NCBI GenBank assembly: GCA_965206595.1
Contig: OZ242214.1
Span: forward strand, 4,160,001 to 4,224,000
Direction: 5' to 3'
Length of the DNA: 64,000 bases
Origin: Candidatus Latescibacterota bacterium
GTDB taxonomy: Bacteria > Latescibacterota > UBA2968 > UBA8231
Under the pieces are notes generated by a model, which was not told the DNA's origin, did no database searches, and worked only from the letters and a program-made list of their open reading frames with translations. Both the position numbers and the translations under genes were made by a program. This document shows, piece after piece, positions 689 through 15,766 of this stretch. Position 1 is the first letter of the stretch. Each line of letters starts with the position of its first letter.

Positions 689-1510
689 ATGACAACACGA
701 TTCACAGACGCTCACTTCGAGGAATTCAGTGCCAGAGGCTACCTGATCGTGCGCGATTTCATCTCGGAAAGGCAGCGCCGGGTTATGGCGGCAGCCCTGC
801 GCAAGCTGCTGAAACCCTGGGATGAAATAAAGGATGATGCTTCCGAAAACCACAGCGACCATTGCTTCTTCCCCTATCCGGAACCCTGCCTGAATCGGGC
901 CATCCTCCATCCCGAAGCCCTCGCATTTGCCAGACGTTGGCACGAGACGGACCACATCCATTACCGGCAGGGGTTGGCCATGGTGCGCTACCCAGGCTTC
1001 GAAGGTGATTCCGGAAAACCCCACATCGACAATGGGAACAACTCCCTGCTGCCAATCACCGTGTCCGACCGGCGCCACGCACAGATCGTTTTCTGGGTAT
1101 TTCCCGAAGACGTCGACGAAGACCAGGCTCCGCTCCGCCTCATCGCGACAGCCGACGGCCGGGATCTCGGCAAGGCGGAAGTGGCCGCAGTCCCTGGAGG
1201 ATCAGTCGCCATCTTTCACACCTATACCTGGCATTCAGCCAGCAATTACCTGTGGCCGGACGGCCAGCGCTATTCGTGGAGCTTCGGGTTCGGACGGGCG
1301 GACCATTACTGGGAAGGCGTCAAGCACTACACCGACCAGGGAGGCAACCCGCATTTTCGAGCCTTCATCGGGTCCCTGTCGGCGAAGGAGCGGGAGGTTT
1401 TCTGGTTTCCGCCGCCGGACCACCTCTACTACACCGGCCAGACCCTCGCCTTGCTGGAGGAGCAGTACCCGGGTTGGAATGCCCGTGGGGAGTACCGGCC
1501 GAACAGCTGA
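689..1510 (+). CDS. Phytanoyl-CoA dioxygenase (PhyH) family Fe(II)/2OG oxygenase
   Basis: N-terminal F...GYLIVRDF, HxD motif (PHIDNG), distal His (WHSAS) and downstream Arg. Confidence 0.85.
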   Translation: MTTRFTDAHFEEFSARGYLIVRDFISERQRRVMAAALRKLLKPWDEIKDDASENHSDHCFFPYPEPCLNRAILHPEALAFARRWHETDHIHYRQGLAMVRYPGFEGDSGKPHIDNGNNSLLPITVSDRRHAQIVFWVFPEDVDEDQAPLRLIATADGRDLGKAEVAAVPGGSVAIFHTYTWHSASNYLWPDGQRYSWSFGFGRADHYWEGVKHYTDQGGNPHFRAFIGSLSAKEREVFWFPPPDHLYYTGQTLALLEEQYPGWNARGEYRPNS

Positions 1511-1667
1511 AAGTTTCTGACCGGATAATCAGGCGGCGGAGAACCGCAGGTGTCAGTGCCGGACCCGGAACGGGCGCGACCTGCTGCTCTGGGCGTCCGG
1601 CCAATCGGTAAAAAGAGATTCGGGGCACAGGGTTTCCGATCAGGGAGCCGCCCCGGACAGCGCTTGG

Positions 1668-1890
1668 CAGCCCGTCGATATAGTTGCTCTGCGGCGGTGC
1701 CGAGTCATGGCGGTCGAAGACGCGCGACCGAGTCGAATCGCAGGGAATTCGGGGAGGGGGCGCCACGCCGTATTCGGAACGCTCTCTTTAGAGCGTTTCA
1801 GGGAACGGTAAAGCCGTTCCCAACACGAACCCGCAGGGTTCGCGACCGCCAGGGCCGGTCGCAGCCCGGATGGATTTTTTCAACGGGCTG
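1668..1890. mobile_element. Putative MITE or non-autonomous IS remnant (~223 bp)
   Basis: Imperfect terminal inverted repeats CAGCCCGTCGATATA (1668-1682) and TTTTTCAACGGGCTG (1876-1890), 12/15 match. Five consecutive hairpins at 1777-1890. No credible coding sequence. Confidence 0.5.
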
Positions 1891-2907
1891 TCAGAGCCGG
1901 CCCCAGTCGAAGACCGCTCCGAGGTACTCCTCCCGTTTCGAGGTCAGCCCTTCGTAGATGCGCTGGCAGTCCGCGGGGGAGGCGAACTGGTCGAGCAGCG
2001 GCGCAACCTGCAGCCGCCCCGCGGCGATCCAGCCGGCGATCTGCCGGTAGTTGGCTGCCAGGTCCCGGGTGCGTTCGCTCTCGTGCATCGGCCAGCGCCA
2101 CTCCAGGGAGCCGATCATGCGGATCGCCTCCAGGTGGATGCGCAGCAGCATCGGCGTGGCGTCGAAGGTCGCCGGCGCCCTCGGGCTCCCGAGCAGGATC
2201 ACTTCCCCGTACCGGGCGGTCTGGGCAACCGCCAGGTCGACGACTTCGCTGACCCCGATCGCCTCGACGACGATGCGGGCTTTGCGGCCCTGCGTCCACT
2301 CGTCGACCGCCTCGCCGAGATCGTCTACCCCGGAATTGACGGTCCGCTCGATGCCGCACTCCCGCGCTCGCCGCAAGCGGTAGTCGGACAGGTCGGCGGC
2401 CAGGACGTCGGCCCCGGCCAGCCGGAACAGCTGGGCGGCGAAGTTGCCGACCAGCCCCATCCCTATGACCATCACCGTGTCGCCGGGCTGCACCGAGGAA
2501 GAGCGCAGGGCGCTGATGCCGACCCCGGCCATGCGCGCGAAAACCATCTGCTCTCCGGGAGCGTCGCGGGGGACGGGAAGGGCGAAGCGGGCGGCGTCCG
2601 CCTTGACGACGCTGGCGTGGCTGGAAAAGCTCAGCACCCGGTCGCCGGGACGGCACATCAGGTCCTCGGAGCCGACGGCGATCACCTCGCCGAGGTTGCC
2701 GTACCCCGTCGGACGCGGGTACCTGCCGCTCTCGCCGAACGGCATCTCCTTCACCAGGCCGGTGAAACCTGCCCCCTCGGTCCCGGCGCTGACGATGGAG
2801 TACCCGGTGCGCACCAGGGCTTCGTGCGGGGCCAGGACCTCCTTGATCTCTGCGACCTGAAGCTCGATGCTGCCTGGTTCGGTAACGATGAGCTGATGCG
2901 TCTGCAA
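1891..2907 (-). CDS. MDR-superfamily alcohol dehydrogenase-like oxidoreductase
   Basis: SAGTE and GYGNLG N-terminal motifs, Rossmann GMGLVG. Probable TTG start at 2907 after GGAGGA (ORF track starts at 2952). Confidence 0.85.
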   Translation of the reverse strand: MQTHQLIVTEPGSIELQVAEIKEVLAPHEALVRTGYSIVSAGTEGAGFTGLVKEMPFGESGRYPRPTGYGNLGEVIAVGSEDLMCRPGDRVLSFSSHASVVKADAARFALPVPRDAPGEQMVFARMAGVGISALRSSSVQPGDTVMVIGMGLVGNFAAQLFRLAGADVLAADLSDYRLRRARECGIERTVNSGVDDLGEAVDEWTQGRKARIVVEAIGVSEVVDLAVAQTARYGEVILLGSPRAPATFDATPMLLRIHLEAIRMIGSLEWRWPMHESERTRDLAANYRQIAGWIAAGRLQVAPLLDQFASPADCQRIYEGLTSKREEYLGAVFDWGRL

Positions 2908-8477: not shown

Positions 8478-9482
8478 TTATCGCGGGGCTGCGAACAGAA
8501 AGGACAACAGCGAGAATCGCTCCCCCGAGGTCACCGGGAGCACCTCGTGCAGAAGCGAGCTGGAAAAGAGGATGGCCGACCCGGCCCGGGGGCGATACAG
8601 GTCCGGTCCGTACTCGGGAAAGCGCAGCTCCCCCCCCTCGAAGCCGCCGTTGAGGTTGACGGTGAGCCCGAAACGGCGGTGCGCTGTCGCCGGGCTGAGG
8701 TTGTCCCGGTGGGCGTGGAAGAAGCCGCCATCAGCAGAGTCGTAGCAGACGATCTTGAACCCCTCGAAGCGGCTGGCTCGGTAGGCGAAGGCCTTCTGCA
8801 GTTCGGGGATGACGCGGCGCCCGACATGGGCGGTCAGCCGCTGCAACAGCCCGGGATCGGTGACGATGTGGTCGCGGCGCCGCTTGCGGTCCCCGGCGAC
8901 GACATCGACGCGGCGCCCCGCGAGGCTCGCCTCCACCCCGGTGGCCGCGGACCCATCATGCCGCCACTTCGAGATCAGCTCGGCGCACCAGGCCTCGTCG
9001 AGCACCCTCGGGACGATGAGCACCGGGGCCGGGGATTCGACAAGCCGCCCTTCCCGTTCGCTGCAGGCGGCAGCGAGGATCCGGGCGACCTCTTCTGCAG
9101 CACCGGCCGGGTTACCCAGGCCGAACCACCCGAGGATGCGCAGGTTCTCGTCGAGGAGGCAGACACTCGGTTTTTTCGAGGCGACCCCGTACGGCTCGCT
9201 GACCGCGGTTCCGGGCTCGGTGAAGGTGTCGAAGGAGAACTGCGTTTCCCCGCTTCCGCTGTCGCGGCCGGAAATGACCCCCAGGATCTCCACCCTGGCC
9301 GCGCACTGGCGGGTCAGGGCCGTGGCGAACGCCTCGGCCGCGGCCCCCTGTGAGGGCTCGGCAAAGATCAGCGCGCAGGGGGTGCCGCCGCCGCGGCCGT
9401 AGAACCGCACCGGGTCCCCGGAGGGGAAGGGCAGGGCGAAGTCCGGGGCGCGCAGGCCAGCCGCCAAGGGACCGCGGCTCAT
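8478..9482 (-). CDS. Redoxin-like domain fused to a 2OG-Fe(II) oxygenase
   Basis: N-terminal G..APDF.L redoxin start lacking CxxC; C-terminal HRD...GGEL.FP...LLHEV.PV..G.RF. Confidence 0.85.
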   Translation of the reverse strand: MSRGPLAAGLRAPDFALPFPSGDPVRFYGRGGGTPCALIFAEPSQGAAAEAFATALTRQCAARVEILGVISGRDSGSGETQFSFDTFTEPGTAVSEPYGVASKKPSVCLLDENLRILGWFGLGNPAGAAEEVARILAAACSEREGRLVESPAPVLIVPRVLDEAWCAELISKWRHDGSAATGVEASLAGRRVDVVAGDRKRRRDHIVTDPGLLQRLTAHVGRRVIPELQKAFAYRASRFEGFKIVCYDSADGGFFHAHRDNLSPATAHRRFGLTVNLNGGFEGGELRFPEYGPDLYRPRAGSAILFSSSLLHEVLPVTSGERFSLLSFLFAAPR

Positions 9483-9562
9483 CGGCGCCGACCCCGGGGA
9501 AAGGAAGCCCTCCGGGCACTGCAGGGGCCCTTAGGCGTCGGCCGCATGTGGGCTCGGTTCTC

Positions 9563-9736
9563 TCACGGCGACCCATGCCTTGCAGCCGGGCCGCCCGTGG
9601 AGGCGGCCTCCGTGCCGGGCAGGAAGATTCCCGGGCGCACCGTGTCCCCTGCCGCGCGCGGCAAGATGCGATGGTTTATTATTTCGACGCCGATCTGGTT
9701 GAAGGCGCTGCTGAAGATCGGATTTTCGAGCGGCAT
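9563..9736 (-). CDS. Small hypothetical protein (57 aa)
   Basis: AAGGAAG RBS before ATG 9736; MPLENPIFSSAFNQIGVEIINHRILPR...HGSP*; directly upstream of the oxygenase on the same strand. Confidence 0.4.
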   Translation of the reverse strand: MPLENPIFSSAFNQIGVEIINHRILPRAAGDTVRPGIFLPGTEAASTGGPAARHGSP

Positions 9737-9765
9737 GGCATCTTCCTTGCGGTGAGCGACAAAAC

Positions 9766-10992
9766 ATGAAAGTGCCCTTTCCCCCTGGCAAGCAGATCGC
9801 CGGCATTCCACTGCTGCTGGCCGCTGTCCTTGCCGGCTGCTACACCCACTCCGGCCAGCCGGGGGACTCCGCTCCCGGGATCAGCTACCTCGACGAACGT
9901 TCGCTCGGGGGCGCCGTCGCGATGGAAGGCCATGTCGTCCTCCTTCACCTCGAAAGCCCGGAGGCGGAGCAGGCCCATCGCGGCGATACGGGAGAAATCG
10001 GTACTGACGTGATTCCCCTTGTCTTCGAGCGCCGGTCGCAGCGAACCCTGCGCATCGGAAGCTGGGCCCACCCTTCGAGCAGGGTCGAGCTGATCGATGC
10101 CTCGGGGACGGTTCTGCTCCGCGCCGGCGCGGCCTCGCCGTCAGCTACCGCCGATATTCCCCGGGGGCGCTACCGGCTGTGCGTATCCCAGGGCGAGGGA
10201 CGCCGGGGGGTAGGGACGCTGTTTATGCGGGCAGATCCCGACACGATGGTGGTTTCCAAGGACTGCCGCGGATGCCGCCTGTCCGGAGCGGATCTCGGGA
10301 GGGCGCGCCTGGCCGCCGCGGACCTGGGCGGCGCCGAACTGCGCGCCGCGAACCTCACCTCCGCCGACCTTACGGAGTCCCGGCTTTCCGGGGCCAACCT
10401 GCGGGGAGCGGTGGTCAACCGGGCGCGCCTTTCAGGGGCGGCCCTGCGGCAGACCGATCTCACGGGGGCAGACCTGATCGCCAGCGACCTGTCCGGGGCC
10501 GATCTCGGGAAGGCGGTAGCCCGCGACGCCAGCTTCGACAGCACCAGCATGGAAGAGGCCGACCTCTCAGGCGCCGACCTGACGGGGGCGACCCTGCGGG
10601 GTGCCGTGCTCAGCGGCGCGGACCTGCGCGGCGCCCGCTTCGTGGGCTCGGAGCTCGACGGGGCGGTCATGAGGTCCGCTGACCTGGGAAACGCCGACTT
10701 CGGAGGCGCGCGGCTCGTGGGGGTCGACCTGGGGGATGCTCTCATCGACAAGGTCGACTTCATCGCTGCCGATCTGCGCCGGGCCAACCTGAAGGGGGCC
10801 CGCCTGGGACGGGTCAAGCTCCGGGGTTGCAGTCTGATCGGTGCCACATGGACGGACGGGACCGTCTGCGGTCACGGATCGGAAGGGCGCTGTGTTCCGA
10901 TGTCTCCGGGAATGCTGCTGCCTGGGCTGGTCCAGTCAGTGGTGCCCGCGGATAGCGGGGGAGCCGAAGTTCCCCGGAGGTCAGGCAAGTGA
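9766..10992 (+). CDS. Pentapeptide-repeat lipoprotein
   Basis: Lipobox LAGC; long A(D/N)LxG pentapeptide tract flanked by CRGC and WTDG..C...C caps. Confidence 0.85.
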   Translation: MKVPFPPGKQIAGIPLLLAAVLAGCYTHSGQPGDSAPGISYLDERSLGGAVAMEGHVVLLHLESPEAEQAHRGDTGEIGTDVIPLVFERRSQRTLRIGSWAHPSSRVELIDASGTVLLRAGAASPSATADIPRGRYRLCVSQGEGRRGVGTLFMRADPDTMVVSKDCRGCRLSGADLGRARLAAADLGGAELRAANLTSADLTESRLSGANLRGAVVNRARLSGAALRQTDLTGADLIASDLSGADLGKAVARDASFDSTSMEEADLSGADLTGATLRGAVLSGADLRGARFVGSELDGAVMRSADLGNADFGGARLVGVDLGDALIDKVDFIAADLRRANLKGARLGRVKLRGCSLIGATWTDGTVCGHGSEGRCVPMSPGMLLPGLVQSVVPADSGGAEVPRRSGK

Positions 10993-11555
10993 ACGGAATT
11001 ACCGGAAGCATCGCGGCGAGCTGTCTTTCCCGCCTTCGCCGGCTGGCCCTGGCGGCCGCAGTCGGATCGTGTCTTTTTCTCACCGCCGCAGCCTCGGCGG
11101 CTCCGAAATCGCAGTTCACGCTGCCGACTCTCGACGGCGGGCAGTTCTCCCTGCAGGAGGCCCTGAAGCAGGGTCCGGTGGTTCTCGATTTCTGGGCGAC
11201 CTGGTGCAAGCCGTGCATCAAGGCGCTGCCGAAGCTGCAGAAAATCGCCGAGGAGTACCGGGAGCGCGGGGTCGGGGTTTACACCGTGAACACCGATGGG
11301 CCGCGCAACCAGCCCAAGGTGCGGCCGTTCCTGAAGCGCCACCGGCTCGAGCTGCCGGTACTCTTCGACCACACGAGGCAGGTGATGAAGCAGTTTCAGC
11401 TCTCCGTCCTTCCGGCGACGATGATCATCTCGACCGAAGGGGCAGTCGTGTACAAGCACGTGGGGTACAAACCAGGCGACGAAACCGGGCTCCGCGACAA
11501 GCTGGCGGAGCTGCTGTCAGTGCAACTCGATTCCACGGAAAGCAGGAGCGAATGA
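10989..11555 (+). CDS. TlpA-family thiol:disulfide oxidoreductase, exported
   Basis: Signal peptide and DFWATWCKPC. The GTG start overlaps the previous stop (GTGA). Confidence 0.9.
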   Translation: MNGITGSIAASCLSRLRRLALAAAVGSCLFLTAAASAAPKSQFTLPTLDGGQFSLQEALKQGPVVLDFWATWCKPCIKALPKLQKIAEEYRERGVGVYTVNTDGPRNQPKVRPFLKRHRLELPVLFDHTRQVMKQFQLSVLPATMIISTEGAVVYKHVGYKPGDETGLRDKLAELLSVQLDSTESRSE

Positions 11556-12436
11556 AAACCCCGATCAGGCGTAGATGGCGGTCGGCCGGCGCGGCGATCG
11601 CGTGCGGTGCCTTTCTGATTTGCGGGCCGAACGGCGCCGAAGCCCAGGTGACCATCGGCGATATCGCCCCCGAGTTCGAGCTCGAAACAGTGGACGGTCA
11701 GTTCGTCTCGCTGAGCGACTTCCGCGACGAAAAGGTTGTCTTTCTCAATATTTTGGGGAACACCTGACCGTACTGTATCGCGGGGGCCGCGAATTCCGAA
11801 GCAATATGGCAGGACTACGGGGGCGACGGCTTCATCGCACTCGGCATCGACATCTGGAACGCCAGTCCCGCTGGCGTCCAGGCAGTATGGATCGACGACG
11901 GGCTGGCCACCTACCCGCTGCTCGTCAACGGTTCCAGTGTCGGCAGCGACTACGGCGTCGGGCAGGACCACTACTTCGTGATCGATCACGAGGGGATCGT
12001 CCGCTACCGGTCCGGCTCCGGCCCGCTCGGCGAACGCTTCGTCGACGGGGAGATCCGCGAGGCAATCGAAGCCTCTCTCGAGGACCTCGCCGACTTCCTG
12101 GAGGATGAGCAAGCGGTGGAGGAAGTGACCACGGAGGTAGCGGCGGGGCCACAGCTTCCTGCCCGGTTCGAGGTGGGGCACGTATACCCGAATCCCTTCA
12201 ATTCCGAAACCACGCTCTCGTTCACGGTGAGGGCGGCAGGATCGCTGACCCTGATGTTGTACGATCTGCGCGGCCGGGTGGTACGCGACTGGTCGGGGCA
12301 TTTCGAGGCCGGAAGGAACTCCCTGACCTGGGACGGCCGTGACCAGGACGGAAATGCTCTTGCCAGCGGGGTGTACATCGCATCGGCGCGGCAGGGGGGC
12401 AGCGCGATAGCGCGCAAGATCACCCTGCTGAAGTAG
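11552..12436 (+). CDS. Secreted AhpC/TSA-redoxin selenoprotein (UxxC) with a T9SS type-A-like/FlgD-Ig C-terminal domain, 294 aa, Sec at codon 72
   Basis: ORF-track pieces ending at 11767 and starting at 11978 are in one frame with only TGA 11765-11767 between them. Readthrough gives VFLNILGNT-U-PYC...FIALGIDIW...YPLL...FVIDHEGIVRY (a complete redoxin fold), then YPNPFN...YDLRGR...WDGRD..G...ASGVY...KITLLK. Confidence 0.88.
11768..11809 (+). promoter_or_regulatory. Bacterial SECIS-like element
   Basis: Upper stem TCGCGG (11778-83) / CCGCGA (11787-92) with a GGG loop 16 nt after the UGA; lower stem CCGTAcTG / CAaTATGG. Confidence 0.75.
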
Positions 12437-12471
12437 CCGGAATCCTCGGCACGACGTCCAGCGAAGGCCGC

Positions 12472-13221
12472 CTACTCCACCAGGGACTCGCGGAGGCTTG
12501 CGATCTGCAGGTCGGAAAGCCCGGCAGAGCGGGCGAACCCCTCGGCCCCTCCGTACCGGGAGTCGAGGAAGCCGAGGACCTTGAGCATGCCTGCGGGCGG
12601 GCAAAACTCCCGCTGGTAGTCGCGCCAGTCGCGAAGTTCGGCTCCGTCCTCGACCTCTGGCGGCTCCGCCTGCCAGCGTTCCCACAGGTACCTCGCAGTC
12701 AGGCCGTAGTCCGCGGCGATGGTCTCCTCAGGCACTCCTGCCATCCTGAGAAGCAGGGCGCTGATCACACCGGTGCGGTCCTTGCCCCCGGCACAGTGGT
12801 ACAGGGCGGGCAGGGCTTCGGCCTCGGCCAGAGTCGCCAGCACCTGGCCGACCTGGCGAGGACGATGCTCCAGCCAGGAGGAGTACGAGCCGAAGATCTT
12901 GTCCGCGGGGGTGCCGACGGCCATGGAATAGGGGATCGGCTCGTCGCCTACGAGGTTGTGGTGGCGGTAGGTCACCTGCCCGGAGTCGGCGAAGACGTTG
13001 GGCCGGTCCGCAAGCTCCTGGGACTGGCGCAGGTCGATGACGGTGCGCAACCCGAGCCCGAGGAGGGTCTGCTGGTCGTCGGCCGTCAGCCGGTGCATGC
13101 TGTCGGCGCGGAAGAAGGTGCGCCACCGCACCCGGCGCCCGTCCGCCGTGGGATAACCTCCTGAATCCCGGATGTTCCAGGCCCCTTCCATTTCGATTCT
13201 GCGACTGGGTTCCGCGCTCAT
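12472..13221 (-). CDS. Tyrosine-protein phosphatase (Y_phosphatase3 / PtpB-like)
   Basis: N.RD.GGY, VIDLR and P-loop HCAGGKDRTG. ATG 13221 follows AAGGGGGAG. Confidence 0.9.
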   Translation of the reverse strand: MSAEPSRRIEMEGAWNIRDSGGYPTADGRRVRWRTFFRADSMHRLTADDQQTLLGLGLRTVIDLRQSQELADRPNVFADSGQVTYRHHNLVGDEPIPYSMAVGTPADKIFGSYSSWLEHRPRQVGQVLATLAEAEALPALYHCAGGKDRTGVISALLLRMAGVPEETIAADYGLTARYLWERWQAEPPEVEDGAELRDWRDYQREFCPPAGMLKVLGFLDSRYGGAEGFARSAGLSDLQIASLRESLVE

Positions 13222-13373: not shown

Positions 13374-14933
13374 CTACAGCACCCTGCTCGTCAGACGTAT
13401 CTCCACCCCTTCGAACCCTAGCACCTCGTAGCAGGTCCCCCCGGTACAGGCCAGCCCGGTGCGCCGTTTTCCCGCGAACAGGTTCGCCGTGTGGGCGTCG
13501 CGGAACAGCCAGCTCGTCCCCAGGGCCCACCAGTAGGTCACCCCCGACTCGGAGGCCCCGATCTCCAGCGGGTCGTTGGACCTCTGGAGCTGCAGCGACC
13601 AGGTCCAGGCCGGATAGCGGGTTACCTCGGCCGCGGCATGCAGGTTTTCGTAAGGGAACCGCCTGCTGCCGAAGCGGCGGTCGACGTCCTGGAACTGCAG
13701 GTCCGCGGCGACGGAGTAGCGCCTGCCCGCGGACCAGTCCCACCGGGTGCCGGCGGTAATCCGCCGCTCGTTCTGGAGTATGCGGCTGCGCGCGAAGTCG
13801 AGGAAACCCTGCCCGTGAAACGTCTCGCCGACCGGGGAATCGAGCTGCAGGAAGTACTCGCTCAGCGACTTCGCCTCCTCCCCGGGACGGGAGCCCCTGC
13901 GGGTGGCCAGGTTCCAGGCGGCGATAAGCCCGACCTGCCGCGGCAGGGCCCAGGTCAGCTCCGCCTGGATTCCGGTTTCGTCGTCAGGGAGCAAGGTGTG
14001 CGTCTGCCGGTTGAGGAGGAAGGCCTCGTGCTCCCGGATCAGGGTAGGCGGGTTGTTGATCGTGGGAAAGTTGAAGTCGTCGTAATCCTTGAGCTCCAGG
14101 CTCAGCCCCCAGGCGCCGCCGGTGAAGGTGCTGGCGAGGTAGAGCCCCCGCGCGTGCTCGCGGTCGAGGGAGAACCAGCTGTCGAGGGCCGGATCGATAC
14201 GGGCGTACTCGCCGTACAGATCGCCGTACCAATCCCGCAACCCGAGCGCTTTCAGCAGGGAACCGAAACGGACCCGGGCATGGGTGGTGGCGCCGCGCTC
14301 TTCGCCGTCGAAATCGAGCACCCCCATGCCGACCTCGAATTCCGCCCAGGGTCGGGCGCTGAAGGCCCCCCCGGAAACGCGCCCGCCGCGGCGCTCGGGG
14401 CCCTTCTGGCCGGGGGCGAGCTCGCTGTCCACCGGGCTGCCGGTGAGCAGCAGCAGGTCGACGTCTCCCCGGCGGTAGCGGACCTGGAAACCGCCGAGGT
14501 CCTGCGTGATCTGGTAGCGCCTCCGGGAGACGCGGTTTTCGGTGACGACTCCGGGAAGCTCGAAGGCGTGCAACAGCAGTCCGCTGCCGACGAGGGTGAG
14601 GTAGGTCCCCGCGATCGCCTCGAAACCTCCCTGCCGGTAGGAGAGGGAGCGCTGGGCGAGATGGAAGTAGTCGCGCCCGCCTTCGCTGGAGCGGAACGCC
14701 TCGCTGCGCAGGCTGGCGAGAAAACCTTCGGTTTCAAAGCCAAAATTCAGCTGCTGGTAGACCGTGCGCAGATCGCCGGGCTCCGACCCGGGCAGGTTGC
14801 CGAGTTGGTACTCGTGATGGGCGGTCAGCTGCGGCTGGGAAGTAGCAGGTCCCGCGGCGGCCAGCATGCCGGCCAGGAACGAACAGGCGAGTCGCCGGAG
14901 GGGGGATGGAGCTTTATCTGCTTTCTGCGGCAT
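13374..14933 (-). CDS. DUF6029-like outer-membrane beta-barrel protein
   Basis: Signal peptide, amphipathic strands, ELKDY...NNPPTLIREH and C-terminal GKRRTGLACTGGTCYEVLGFEGVEIRL (CxGGxC). Confidence 0.7.
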   Translation of the reverse strand: MPQKADKAPSPLRRLACSFLAGMLAAAGPATSQPQLTAHHEYQLGNLPGSEPGDLRTVYQQLNFGFETEGFLASLRSEAFRSSEGGRDYFHLAQRSLSYRQGGFEAIAGTYLTLVGSGLLLHAFELPGVVTENRVSRRRYQITQDLGGFQVRYRRGDVDLLLLTGSPVDSELAPGQKGPERRGGRVSGGAFSARPWAEFEVGMGVLDFDGEERGATTHARVRFGSLLKALGLRDWYGDLYGEYARIDPALDSWFSLDREHARGLYLASTFTGGAWGLSLELKDYDDFNFPTINNPPTLIREHEAFLLNRQTHTLLPDDETGIQAELTWALPRQVGLIAAWNLATRRGSRPGEEAKSLSEYFLQLDSPVGETFHGQGFLDFARSRILQNERRITAGTRWDWSAGRRYSVAADLQFQDVDRRFGSRRFPYENLHAAAEVTRYPAWTWSLQLQRSNDPLEIGASESGVTYWWALGTSWLFRDAHTANLFAGKRRTGLACTGGTCYEVLGFEGVEIRLTSRVL

Positions 14934-14980
14934 CGTAGTTTCTCGACATAAGAAGACAAGCGATTCGGCGGATAGGCTCA

Positions 14981-15766
14981 ATGGAGCGAAGCGTTTTCGA
15001 GGGACTGGATGGGAAGCAGGCGGGGCGGCGTTCGGCCAAACCGCGGTCGGCAGGCCTTACCATGGTCGTCGACTGGGGAATGGGATCGAACCGGCAGAGG
15101 GACCTGCAGGATGCCGGCGGTCCCTTCATCGATTTTGCGAAGGTGGCGGTCGGAGTTTCCCGGCTCCTTCCCGGCTCCCTGCTGCAGGGCAAGATCGACT
15201 CCTATCTCGCCGGGGACATAGAGCCGTTTCCGGGAGGACAGTACCTGGAGTATGCGGAAACGGAAGGGAAGCTCGAGCGCTATTTCGAGGCGGTCGCCGA
15301 GGCCGGTTATCGCTGGGTCGAGGTCTCCGACAACCTGCTGCCTGCCACCGCGTCCTGGAAGGAGACGACCATCCGCAGGGCCCGGGAGGAATTCGGCCTG
15401 AACGTCCTCGGGGAGGTCGGCAGGAAGGAGGGGCTCGAAAACTCCATACCCCTGTCCGACAACGCCAGGATATGCCTCGAAGCCGGGGCCCAGCTCATCC
15501 TGCTGGAGGCGGCCGAACTGCTGGCGGGCGACAGCGCCACATTGGCAGCGGTCGAGGATATCGTCGTCGCGGCCGGTCTCGAAAAGGTGATGTTCGAGCT
15601 TCCCGGTCCCTGGATCGGGGGGGTGACCGCGAGCGACGTCCATCGCATCCGGCGCGAGCTGATCGACCGCTATGGAACCGAGGTCAATTTCGGCAACGTC
15701 GCTGCCGACGACCTTATGTCGCTCGAGGCTTACCGCCGCGGCCTGGGCATCAACGCCGGCAGCTGA
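14981..15766 (+). CDS. comA: Phosphosulfolactate synthase (ComA family)
   Basis: KPR..GLTMVVD.G, IDFAK, VEVSD, EVG.K, FELP and G.EVN.GNV...D..SLE..R.GL. Confidence 0.85.
   Translation: MERSVFEGLDGKQAGRRSAKPRSAGLTMVVDWGMGSNRQRDLQDAGGPFIDFAKVAVGVSRLLPGSLLQGKIDSYLAGDIEPFPGGQYLEYAETEGKLERYFEAVAEAGYRWVEVSDNLLPATASWKETTIRRAREEFGLNVLGEVGRKEGLENSIPLSDNARICLEAGAQLILLEAAELLAGDSATLAAVEDIVVAAGLEKVMFELPGPWIGGVTASDVHRIRRELIDRYGTEVNFGNVAADDLMSLEAYRRGLGINAGS

Follow-up and report, generated by a model that had tools for sequence, protein, structure and literature searches.

In a stretch of 64,000 nucleotides of bacterial DNA (contig OZ242214.1, positions 4,160,001 to 4,224,000 of the forward strand, assembly GCA_965206595.1; hereafter the window, whose own numbering is used unless a genome is named), a gene that is split by an in-frame TGA is one real selenoprotein gene, and it is systematically mis-called. 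[quoted passage not shown] The gene and the two residues of its redox centre are located as follows.

11552-12436, + strand: whole selenoprotein gene, 294 codons plus TAG, with one selenocysteine UGA; homologues can be aligned to it from residue 1 to residue 294, each with a single TGA.
11765-11767, + strand: the selenocysteine UGA, codon 72, at the first position of U-P-Y-C and in a loop just ahead of the helix that begins at residue 73.
11774-11776, + strand: Cys75 (TGT), which presumably acts as the resolving residue for U72; its column is invariant in our alignments A3 and A4.

The frame is open from the start ATG at 11552-11554 to the stop TAG at 12434-12436, and with the TGA read as U it contains no other stop. 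The list of open reading frames (ORFs) breaks the gene in two, one ORF stopping at 11767 and the other being a 152-residue ORF at 11978-12436, and the entry for this very gene in the protein collection is the 152-residue C-terminal piece (P0115). About 37 relatives in the database are C-terminal fragments as well, 162-219 residues long and beginning after the TGA, and the only named close relative is a 'T9SS type A sorting domain-containing protein [Gemmatimonadetes bacterium]'. The full-length relatives in the protein collection are Cys forms only, with G-x-x-C-x-x-C and the same tail. The original prediction, which a model had made from the letters of the window and its ORF list, claimed that the ORF track splits one gene at TGA 11765-11767, and this was borne out, as 294 residues are read once the TGA is taken as U. 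The motifs it quoted from the readthrough protein (NILGNT-U-PYC, YPNPFN, WDG and SGVY) are all found there, and WATWCKPC is found in the neighbouring TlpA-like protein (ORF 10989-11555). It had also placed the TGA at the first redox position of a thioredoxin-fold motif, and the codon does align with the first Cys of CxxC.

One line of evidence for selenocysteine is the conservation of the TGA. The phylum was scanned with a 155-residue domain query over 168 genomes at E <= 1e-15, which resulted in 80 domain matches in 57 genomes. Exactly one in-frame TGA is present in 78 of the 80 (one of these has a TAG in addition), and two matches have no in-frame TGA. In 21 of 22 copies from 20 loci of relatives the same column holds U, within G-x-x-U-x-x-C; the remaining copy, a tandem paralogue (L034b), has Cys there. 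The Cys forms P0038-P0042 likewise have Cys at the column of codon 72, so that the relatives show TGA or Cys at this place, as the original prediction had expected. The protein is conserved on either side of the TGA in relatives down to ~35% identity. Locus L023, which has the extra in-frame TAG, was omitted from alignments A3 and A4, L027 (at a contig end) from A4, L030b (which duplicates L028) from A2, A4 and the codon test, and the Cys paralogue L034b from A2. Asp139 was invariant in the first alignment and variable in the wider one, and we make no claim on this residue.

The machinery for selenocysteine is encoded in the window's own genome (G000), a single contig of 7.05 Mb. We identified selA (539.1 bits), selB (338.4 bits) and selD (367.8 bits), all over their curated cut-offs, and aragorn reported a tRNA-SeC (tca); the selA, selB, selC and selD genes that the original prediction proposed to look for are thus all accounted for. 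The selD gene (G000:C1:6566458-6567381, - strand; locus L001) is itself a selenoprotein gene, with one in-frame TGA in a CGU..K motif. Across the phylum, 131 of the 168 genomes have a selA match that passes its cut-off, and these include all 56 genomes with the TGA form of the redoxin (56/56). The sole genome with the Cys form only (G100, 80% complete) has no selA over the cut-off, and a redoxin match is likewise missing from the five genomes of the window's family in which selA is absent. As the relatives are kin to one another, this co-occurrence of selA and TGA is to be read as consistency and not as a statistical test.

An error in the assembly is argued against by contigs from runs of three other studies, which cover codon 72 unchanged. 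Reads with TGC, TGT or TGG at 11765 had been named as what would overturn the prediction, and these contigs show TGA. Two of them (X4 and X5) span the whole gene with 2 differences, none of them at the TGA, and a third piece (X8), over 11744-11905, has 0 differences. A further contig of 268 nt (X20) comes from an RNA library, in which DNA carry-over is possible; it is ~93% identical (19 differences) and keeps the TGA and the hairpin described below. The sample of this RNA-library contig, which represents a close relative, is labelled 'sponge metagenome'.

Shortly after the UGA lies a structure resembling a bacterial selenocysteine insertion sequence (bSECIS).

11778-11792, + strand: bSECIS-like hairpin UCGCGG-GGG-CCGCGA, 6 bp with a 3-nt loop.

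The hairpin begins 10 nt past the UGA, which puts its apical loop at a distance of 16 nt from that codon, and its folding energy is -8.8 kcal/mol. The published bSECIS model (PMC13188914) expects an apical loop of 3-9 nt with G in the first two loop positions, a stem of 4-16 bp, a distance from UGA to loop of 16-37 nt and a minimum free energy <= -7.5 kcal/mol, and the hairpin, with its GGG loop, fits these constraints. An equally stable hairpin at nt 13-30 was found after 146 of 20000 random genomic TGAs. Over the 20 aligned relatives, pairing holds in 90.4% of the cells, compared with 31.6-52.6% for slid partners, and two of the six pairs have undergone compensatory changes (C-G to G-C in L027, G-C to U-A in L024-L026). 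The stem is also visible in the choice of codons. Its three Ala codons are GCG in 16/16, GCC in 17/19 and GCG in 14/15 relatives, with third-position entropies of 0, 0.59 and 0.35 bits respectively, which are the lowest among 25 conserved four-fold-degenerate columns (the next is 0.87 bits). The same geometry is seen after the UGA of selD in G000 (11-nt spacer, 6-bp stem, GGUC loop), and in the Cys form from Bacteroidales no hairpin folds at the corresponding site (0.0 kcal/mol). When 11760-11830 was folded as one piece the z value was 0.38, so the signal lies in the apical hairpin only and not in any longer structure, and no Rfam family was matched at gathering thresholds anywhere in the window, hairpin included.

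Two observations weigh against this picture. Pairs changed on both sides were matched in 73 of 500 shuffles, the independent changes being few, and the Cys paralogue L034b retains the weak hairpin of its U neighbour. The gene has the Sec machinery in its genome, a column of UGA or Cys in its relatives and a hairpin within the bSECIS constraints, as is expected of a bacterial selenoprotein gene, and incorporation of selenocysteine is predicted. We consider the coding of selenocysteine at codon 72 very highly probable.

Regarding the domain that carries the selenocysteine, profile searches assign it to the redoxins.

11654-12010, + strand: redoxin domain (AhpC-TSA/Redoxin), residues 35-153; Pfam PF00578 53.7 bits (match over residues 35-152), PF08534 43.9 bits.

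All redoxin-type matches from NCBIfam are far under their cut-offs (deiodinase NF038285 34.1 vs 250, ResA 32.4 vs 170, DsbE 29 vs 359), which means that no curated model covers the U-redoxin family. The nearest PDB entries by sequence are TlpA-like, DsbE/CcmG and ResA proteins (3kcm, 3hdc, 2b1k, 3k8n and 4nmu; E 6e-7 to 1e-4), with U72 standing opposite the first Cys of their WCxxC. In an AlphaFold2 model computed from 16 aligned rows, the mean predicted local distance difference test score (pLDDT) is 78.4. The model contains a strand at 62-68, the loop G-N-T-U and a helix from residue 73, which is the classic position of CxxC. By Foldseek the domain is equally close to AhpE and Bcp and to ResA and CcmG (E 2e-10 to 2e-8), with target-normalised template modelling scores (TM-scores) mostly of 0.73-0.87 among the matches listed (AhpE 0.82).

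The redoxin domain is preceded by a putative export signal and followed by a linker and a putative sorting domain.

11552-11644, + strand: predicted Sec-type signal peptide, residues 1-31, read from sequence only.
12044-12181, + strand: helical then acidic linker, residues ~165-210; helix at 165-189, pLDDT <50 at 190-218.
12182-12433, + strand: C-terminal immunoglobulin-like (Ig-like) sorting domain (T9SS type A C-terminal domain / FlgD_ig), residues 211-294, from profile matches.

The N-terminus has a basic n-region (K2, R6-8, R10), a hydrophobic stretch of 13 residues (AGAAIACGAFLIC) and A-E-A ahead of Q32, and the model has pLDDT <50 for residues 1-29. The N-termini of the relatives are hydrophobic too and end in AxA (AFA-Q, AAA-Q). 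We rejected a lipoprotein reading of C18 or C24, as Cys is found there only in the closest relatives and the distant ones have plain AxA signal peptides. The TIGR04183 and FlgD_ig profiles had been suggested as a check of the C-terminus, and three profiles are over their curated cut-offs there, namely TIGR04183 from NCBIfam (33.6 bits vs 23), PF18962 Por_Secre_tail (29.3 bits vs 27, residues 211-290) and PF13860 FlgD_ig (38.3 bits vs 27, residues 221-279). Folded alone, the tail gives a seven-strand Ig-like sandwich with pLDDT 86.7, which occupies residues 220-292 in the full-length model. Its Foldseek matches are FlgD Ig domains (E 2e-4), a PorU chain (query-normalised TM-score 0.70) and a PorZ chain (0.62).

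The genome also encodes parts of the apparatus that would read such a tail. PorU (617.6 bits vs cut-off 420) and SprA (615.5 bits vs cut-off 200) were recovered in G000, and a PorV-like gene (141 bits, under the cut-off of 250) lies 270 nt downstream of porU on the same strand. The two por genes are at G000:C1:138567-142999 (+ strand; loci L035 and L037), sprA is elsewhere in the genome, and the tail portion of the PorU model matches at no fewer than 49 other places in it. Of what is typical for a T9SS type A cargo, the C-terminal domain over its cut-off and the SprA, PorU and PorV-like genes were found, and for the PorK/L/M/N (GldK/L/M/N) motor GldL and GldM gave no match and GldK a weak one. 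The genomic picture may correspond to a T9SS that is reduced or divergent in this phylum.

Immediately upstream of the selenoprotein gene are two genes on the same strand.

10989-11555, + strand: tlpA-like redoxin of the CxxC type (WATWCKPC), with a signal or anchor at its N-terminus; PF00578 88.1 bits, PF08534 81.5 bits.
9766-10992, + strand: pentapeptide-repeat protein whose N-terminus resembles that of a lipoprotein; its stop codon and the start of tlpA share GTGA.

The TGA stop of the tlpA-like gene overlaps the ATG of the selenoprotein gene (ATGA), and the three genes look like one operon, in which the pentapeptide gene is probably the first gene because its stop overlaps the tlpA start. 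A tlpA-like gene stands directly 5' in 12 of the 20 loci, from several genera, and the pentapeptide gene is upstream solely within the window's genus, in three loci (that of G000 and those of the genus's two other genomes). Downstream, the neighbour is a convergent gene of the tyrosine-phosphatase family. Scans of 9400-12800 found no promoter or terminator.

As to where the protein ends up, one alternative is that it is a real selenoprotein and no T9SS cargo, its Ig-like domain of the FlgD_ig type serving structure or binding and the enzyme staying in the periplasm with its TlpA-like partner. Several findings speak for this and weigh against export to the surface. The tail scores higher with FlgD_ig than with Por_Secre_tail (38.3 vs 29.3 bits), FlgD Ig domains come first by Foldseek E-value, and the fold of the tail fits FlgD Ig as well as PorU and PorZ, so the fold does not discriminate. 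GldM (TIGR03517, PF12081) and GldL gave no match in G000, where GldN was not searched, and GldK is weak (100 bits vs cut-off 350); these Gld models are built on Bacteroidota, and in the control genomes nothing passed the cut-off. An enzyme at the surface or in the medium would moreover be beyond the reach of a periplasmic TlpA, which fits poorly with the conserved tlpA pairing, a neighbourhood best explained by a common compartment, and some relatives (L031-L033) are tailless. However, the scores for TIGR04183 and PF18962 exceed their curated cut-offs, and the position of the domain is strictly C-terminal. The genome has PorU, the PorV-like gene, SprA and dozens of proteins with the same tail, and the same architecture is present in a Cys homologue from Bacteroidales, in a phylum with an established T9SS. 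HBP35 is, according to the available text of the reports on it (PMC2907840, PMC3120885), a thioredoxin-like protein that is a T9SS cargo. We consider a purely periplasmic enzyme rather unlikely, though to be taken seriously, and sorting of the selenoprotein by a T9SS-type route fairly likely. Of the original claim that the protein is exported to the cell surface, the part concerning the apparatus is supported by PorU, the PorV-like gene and SprA; GldL and GldM were not found in G000, and export to the surface is still an inference.

The chemistry of the redox centre is less clear. In peroxiredoxins (Prx), PxxxTxxC together with an Arg is described as absolutely conserved in the available text of one study (PMC3322552). 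This signature is absent here, F-L-N-I-L-G-N-T-U-P-Y-C lacking Pro at -7 and Thr at -3 whether counted from U72 or from C75, and the active-site motif of the peroxiredoxin class is thus missing. The cis-Pro of the TlpA type is unaligned as well, since GVPETF of 3kcm stands opposite GQDHYF and the Pro column is Asp. With the TlpA/ResA/DsbE class the domain shares the CxxC position at the N-terminus of the first helix, and it lacks the cis-Pro, and its scores are under the family cut-offs. Both absences weigh against a simple assignment, and without a Prx motif and an aligned cis-Pro the chemistry can be read from neither family. Judging from these motifs, the domain is a 'Prx-like/TlpA-like' CxxC-type redoxin, canonical in neither family; we use this label because it is near both folds yet has neither the Prx signature nor the cis-Pro. 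The catalytic role and the partnership with TlpA are reasoned hypotheses, to which we give at best an even chance.

The same gene and the same export could also go with another chemistry, that of a deiodinase-like reductive dehalogenase or a Sec peroxidase in place of a protein disulfide reductase. NF038285, named 'deiodinase family protein', is the top NCBIfam match (34.1 bits, E 2e-8, over residues 34-91), and the local motif G-x-T-U-P presumably resembles the deiodinase active site. The best Foldseek matches are the peroxiredoxins AhpE and Bcp. In Caulobacter, a TlpA feeds a peroxiredoxin, as far as the available text of PMC3322552 describes it. However, the NF038285 score is far under its cut-off of 250 and barely over that of ResA (32.4), T4_deiodinase (PF00837) is missing from the Pfam matches at E <= 0.1, the PxxxTxxC signature of peroxiredoxins is not present in the sequence, and the PDB matches by sequence are led by TlpA-like, DsbE/CcmG and ResA proteins. 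We therefore see a dehalogenase or a peroxidase as unlikely.

Two other explanations would dispense with selenocysteine. In one, Trp, Cys or Gly is inserted at the TGA, through near-cognate readthrough or a changed code. An open frame alone leaves the inserted residue unspecified, and the statistics of the hairpin are modest if taken alone, which would both be in keeping with such a readthrough. However, TGA terminates both upstream genes and also several relatives of the selenoprotein gene, and the full Sec machinery is paired with the TGA form in 56/56 genomes. The codon occupies the redox-active Cys site of CxxC, exchange between Sec and Cys being the rule for known selenoproteins (PMC13188914), and the hairpin shares the geometry of the genome's own selD SECIS. 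Readthrough with another amino acid is thus highly improbable. Still less credible is a broken gene or a pair of genes, in which the TGA is a true stop (by nonsense mutation or assembly error) and only the 152-residue ORF or nothing is made, as gene callers suggest with P0115 and with the ~37 C-terminal fragments, since 78/80 relatives keep one TGA, which is at the same column in all 21 TGA copies read with both flanks conserved, contigs of three other studies keep it, and the stretch 11768-11977 is conserved without a start codon of its own to explain it.

Taken as a selenoprotein that leaves the cytoplasm, the protein could work as follows, the steps after the insertion of selenocysteine being inferred. 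SelB with Sec-tRNA(Sec) would read the hairpin at 11778-11792 and put selenocysteine at UGA 72. The pre-protein would pass the inner membrane by the Sec pathway and be cut by signal peptidase I after A31, and the thioredoxin-fold domain would fold in the periplasm with the U72-x-x-C75 centre at the N-terminus of its first helix, as the CxxC of TlpA, ResA and CcmG. This centre would cycle between selenol/thiol and selenenylsulfide. The exposed Sec could attack an oxidised extracytoplasmic substrate, a disulfide or a peroxide, and C75 would resolve the intermediate to the selenenylsulfide. The presumably co-transcribed TlpA-like CxxC protein may then re-reduce the centre, in the way TlpA does for PprX in the ScsB-TlpA-PprX system according to the available text of PMC3322552. 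The Ig-like tail would be the type A sorting signal, read by the SprA/PorV/PorU apparatus, and bring the protein to the surface or into the medium.

The relatives show several variations of this module. At L029:1453-3369 (+ strand, genome G017) a multi-domain selenoprotein of 639 residues combines the U-redoxin with a domain of the beta-lactamase fold (PF00144, 216.6 bits) and the tail described above. Locus L034 (G038) has tandem paralogues at 103-1428 and 1462-2166 (+ strand), a Cys form with GYSCKYC and Ig-like domains beside a Sec form with GYTUTYC, and both have an EF-hand/dockerin-like C-terminus in place of the T9SS tail; the pair looks like a recent switch between Cys and Sec. In L031-L033 the U-redoxin has no tail. 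Locus L023 (G010:C1:4136423-4137229) has a TAG three codons ahead of the Sec-TGA (G-*-D-U-H-F-C) and a hairpin out of register, and it may be a pseudogene or contain a sequencing error.

Other features of the window around the gene were also noted. An antisense ORF of 429 residues (11396-12685, - strand) spans the whole selenoprotein gene; it matches no Pfam family and was set aside as a probable high-GC artefact. Three further genes nearby are the following.

8478-9482, - strand: protein of 334 residues with a C-terminal 2-oxoglutarate-Fe(II) oxygenase domain (PF13640, 50.8 bits) and an N-terminal part of ~240 residues without Pfam match.
13374-14981, - strand: DUF6029-family protein (44 bits at its C-terminal end).
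14981-15766, + strand: ComA-type phosphosulfolactate synthase (161.2 bits).

As to what these results mean, gene callers and public annotation truncate the whole U-redoxin family, and a curated model would mend dozens of genes in the phylum. The 78 of 80 copies with TGA point to Sec being strongly selected over Cys, a bias that, joined with the conserved tlpA partner, offers a clean natural system for asking what Sec gives over Cys in an oxidising compartment. If the tail acts as it does in Bacteroidota, selenocysteine joins the chemistries that a T9SS can place outside the cell, which leads one to ask by what means a selenol outside the cell stays reduced. The genome adds evidence for PorU, PorV and SprA, against recognisable GldL and GldM, in the T9SS of Gemmatimonadota. 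A bolder version, in which this is the first selenoenzyme delivered by a type IX-like system, charged by its TlpA-like partner in the periplasm and acting outside on oxidants, disulfides or halogenated aromatics that come from a host or the environment, and in which the module, recombined with other secreted enzymes such as the beta-lactamase-fold one, is a portable 'selenium warhead' for chemistry outside the cell, is a speculation that we hold to be quite unlikely.

In the literature, we found no paper joining selenocysteine with type IX secretion, and the listed papers that mention both selenoproteins and the T9SS are unrelated, judged by title and abstract. A search for selenoproteins with Gemmatimonadetes gave, as far as titles and abstracts tell, nothing about this subject, and a search for selenoproteins with sponge symbiont Gemmatimonadota gave none. 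The closest known group are the UxxC selenoprotein families catalogued in 2026 (PMC13188914), which include a 'Prx-like thiol:disulfide oxidoreductase' (PF00578), a 'Redoxin family protein' (PF08534), cd02966 and a thiol-disulfide isomerase-like family. The protein shares with them PF00578 and PF08534, Sec as the first residue of UxxC and a bSECIS in the coding region after the UGA. Compared by description, it differs in its T9SS tail, none being mentioned there, though this clade may already be counted among those families under one of the generic names. The main text of that catalogue does not contain 'secret', 'signal peptide', 'periplasm' or 'Gemmatimon'.

Compared with TlpA, ResA and CcmG (DsbE), the protein shares the position of U72 at the first Cys of WCxxC, a fold with target-normalised TM-scores of 0.76-0.87, and predicted export; in contrast to them it has Sec for Cys, no Trp before the motif, an added sorting domain and scores far under the family cut-offs. 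The ScsB-TlpA-PprX system of Caulobacter crescentus (PMC3322552) is similar in that, according to the text available, an exported TlpA-like protein gives electrons to an exported enzyme of the Prx fold. However, PprX is described there as a true peroxiredoxin with PxxxTxxC and Arg, and periplasmic, whereas the selenoprotein has UxxC and a tail.

For the combination of a redoxin with a sorting tail, two Cys proteins can be compared. HBP35 of Porphyromonas gingivalis has a motif like that of thioredoxin and a C-terminal domain that is conserved, and it needs Por/T9SS for secretion, as the available text of PMC2907840 and PMC3120885 reports; likened by description, it differs in being a Cys protein from Bacteroidota that binds hemin. 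The Cys form P0039 from a Bacteroidales metagenome-assembled genome (L042) has the same layout, with a signal peptide, a redoxin domain with G-Y-G-C-P-H-C and a Por_Secre_tail, and it is 39% identical to the redoxin domain of the window (query P0113) over 94% of the domain. It differs in having Cys for Sec, no hairpin and DNA of 35% G+C. The original prediction had called the architecture unusual, and this holds for the combination, while the parts are known singly, the UxxC redoxins from PMC13188914 and the tailed thioredoxin-like protein from HBP35, so far as the available text of PMC2907840 goes. The protein is a member of the known UxxC redoxin class in a new exported, tail-bearing architecture, which is strongly conserved within one family of Gemmatimonadota.

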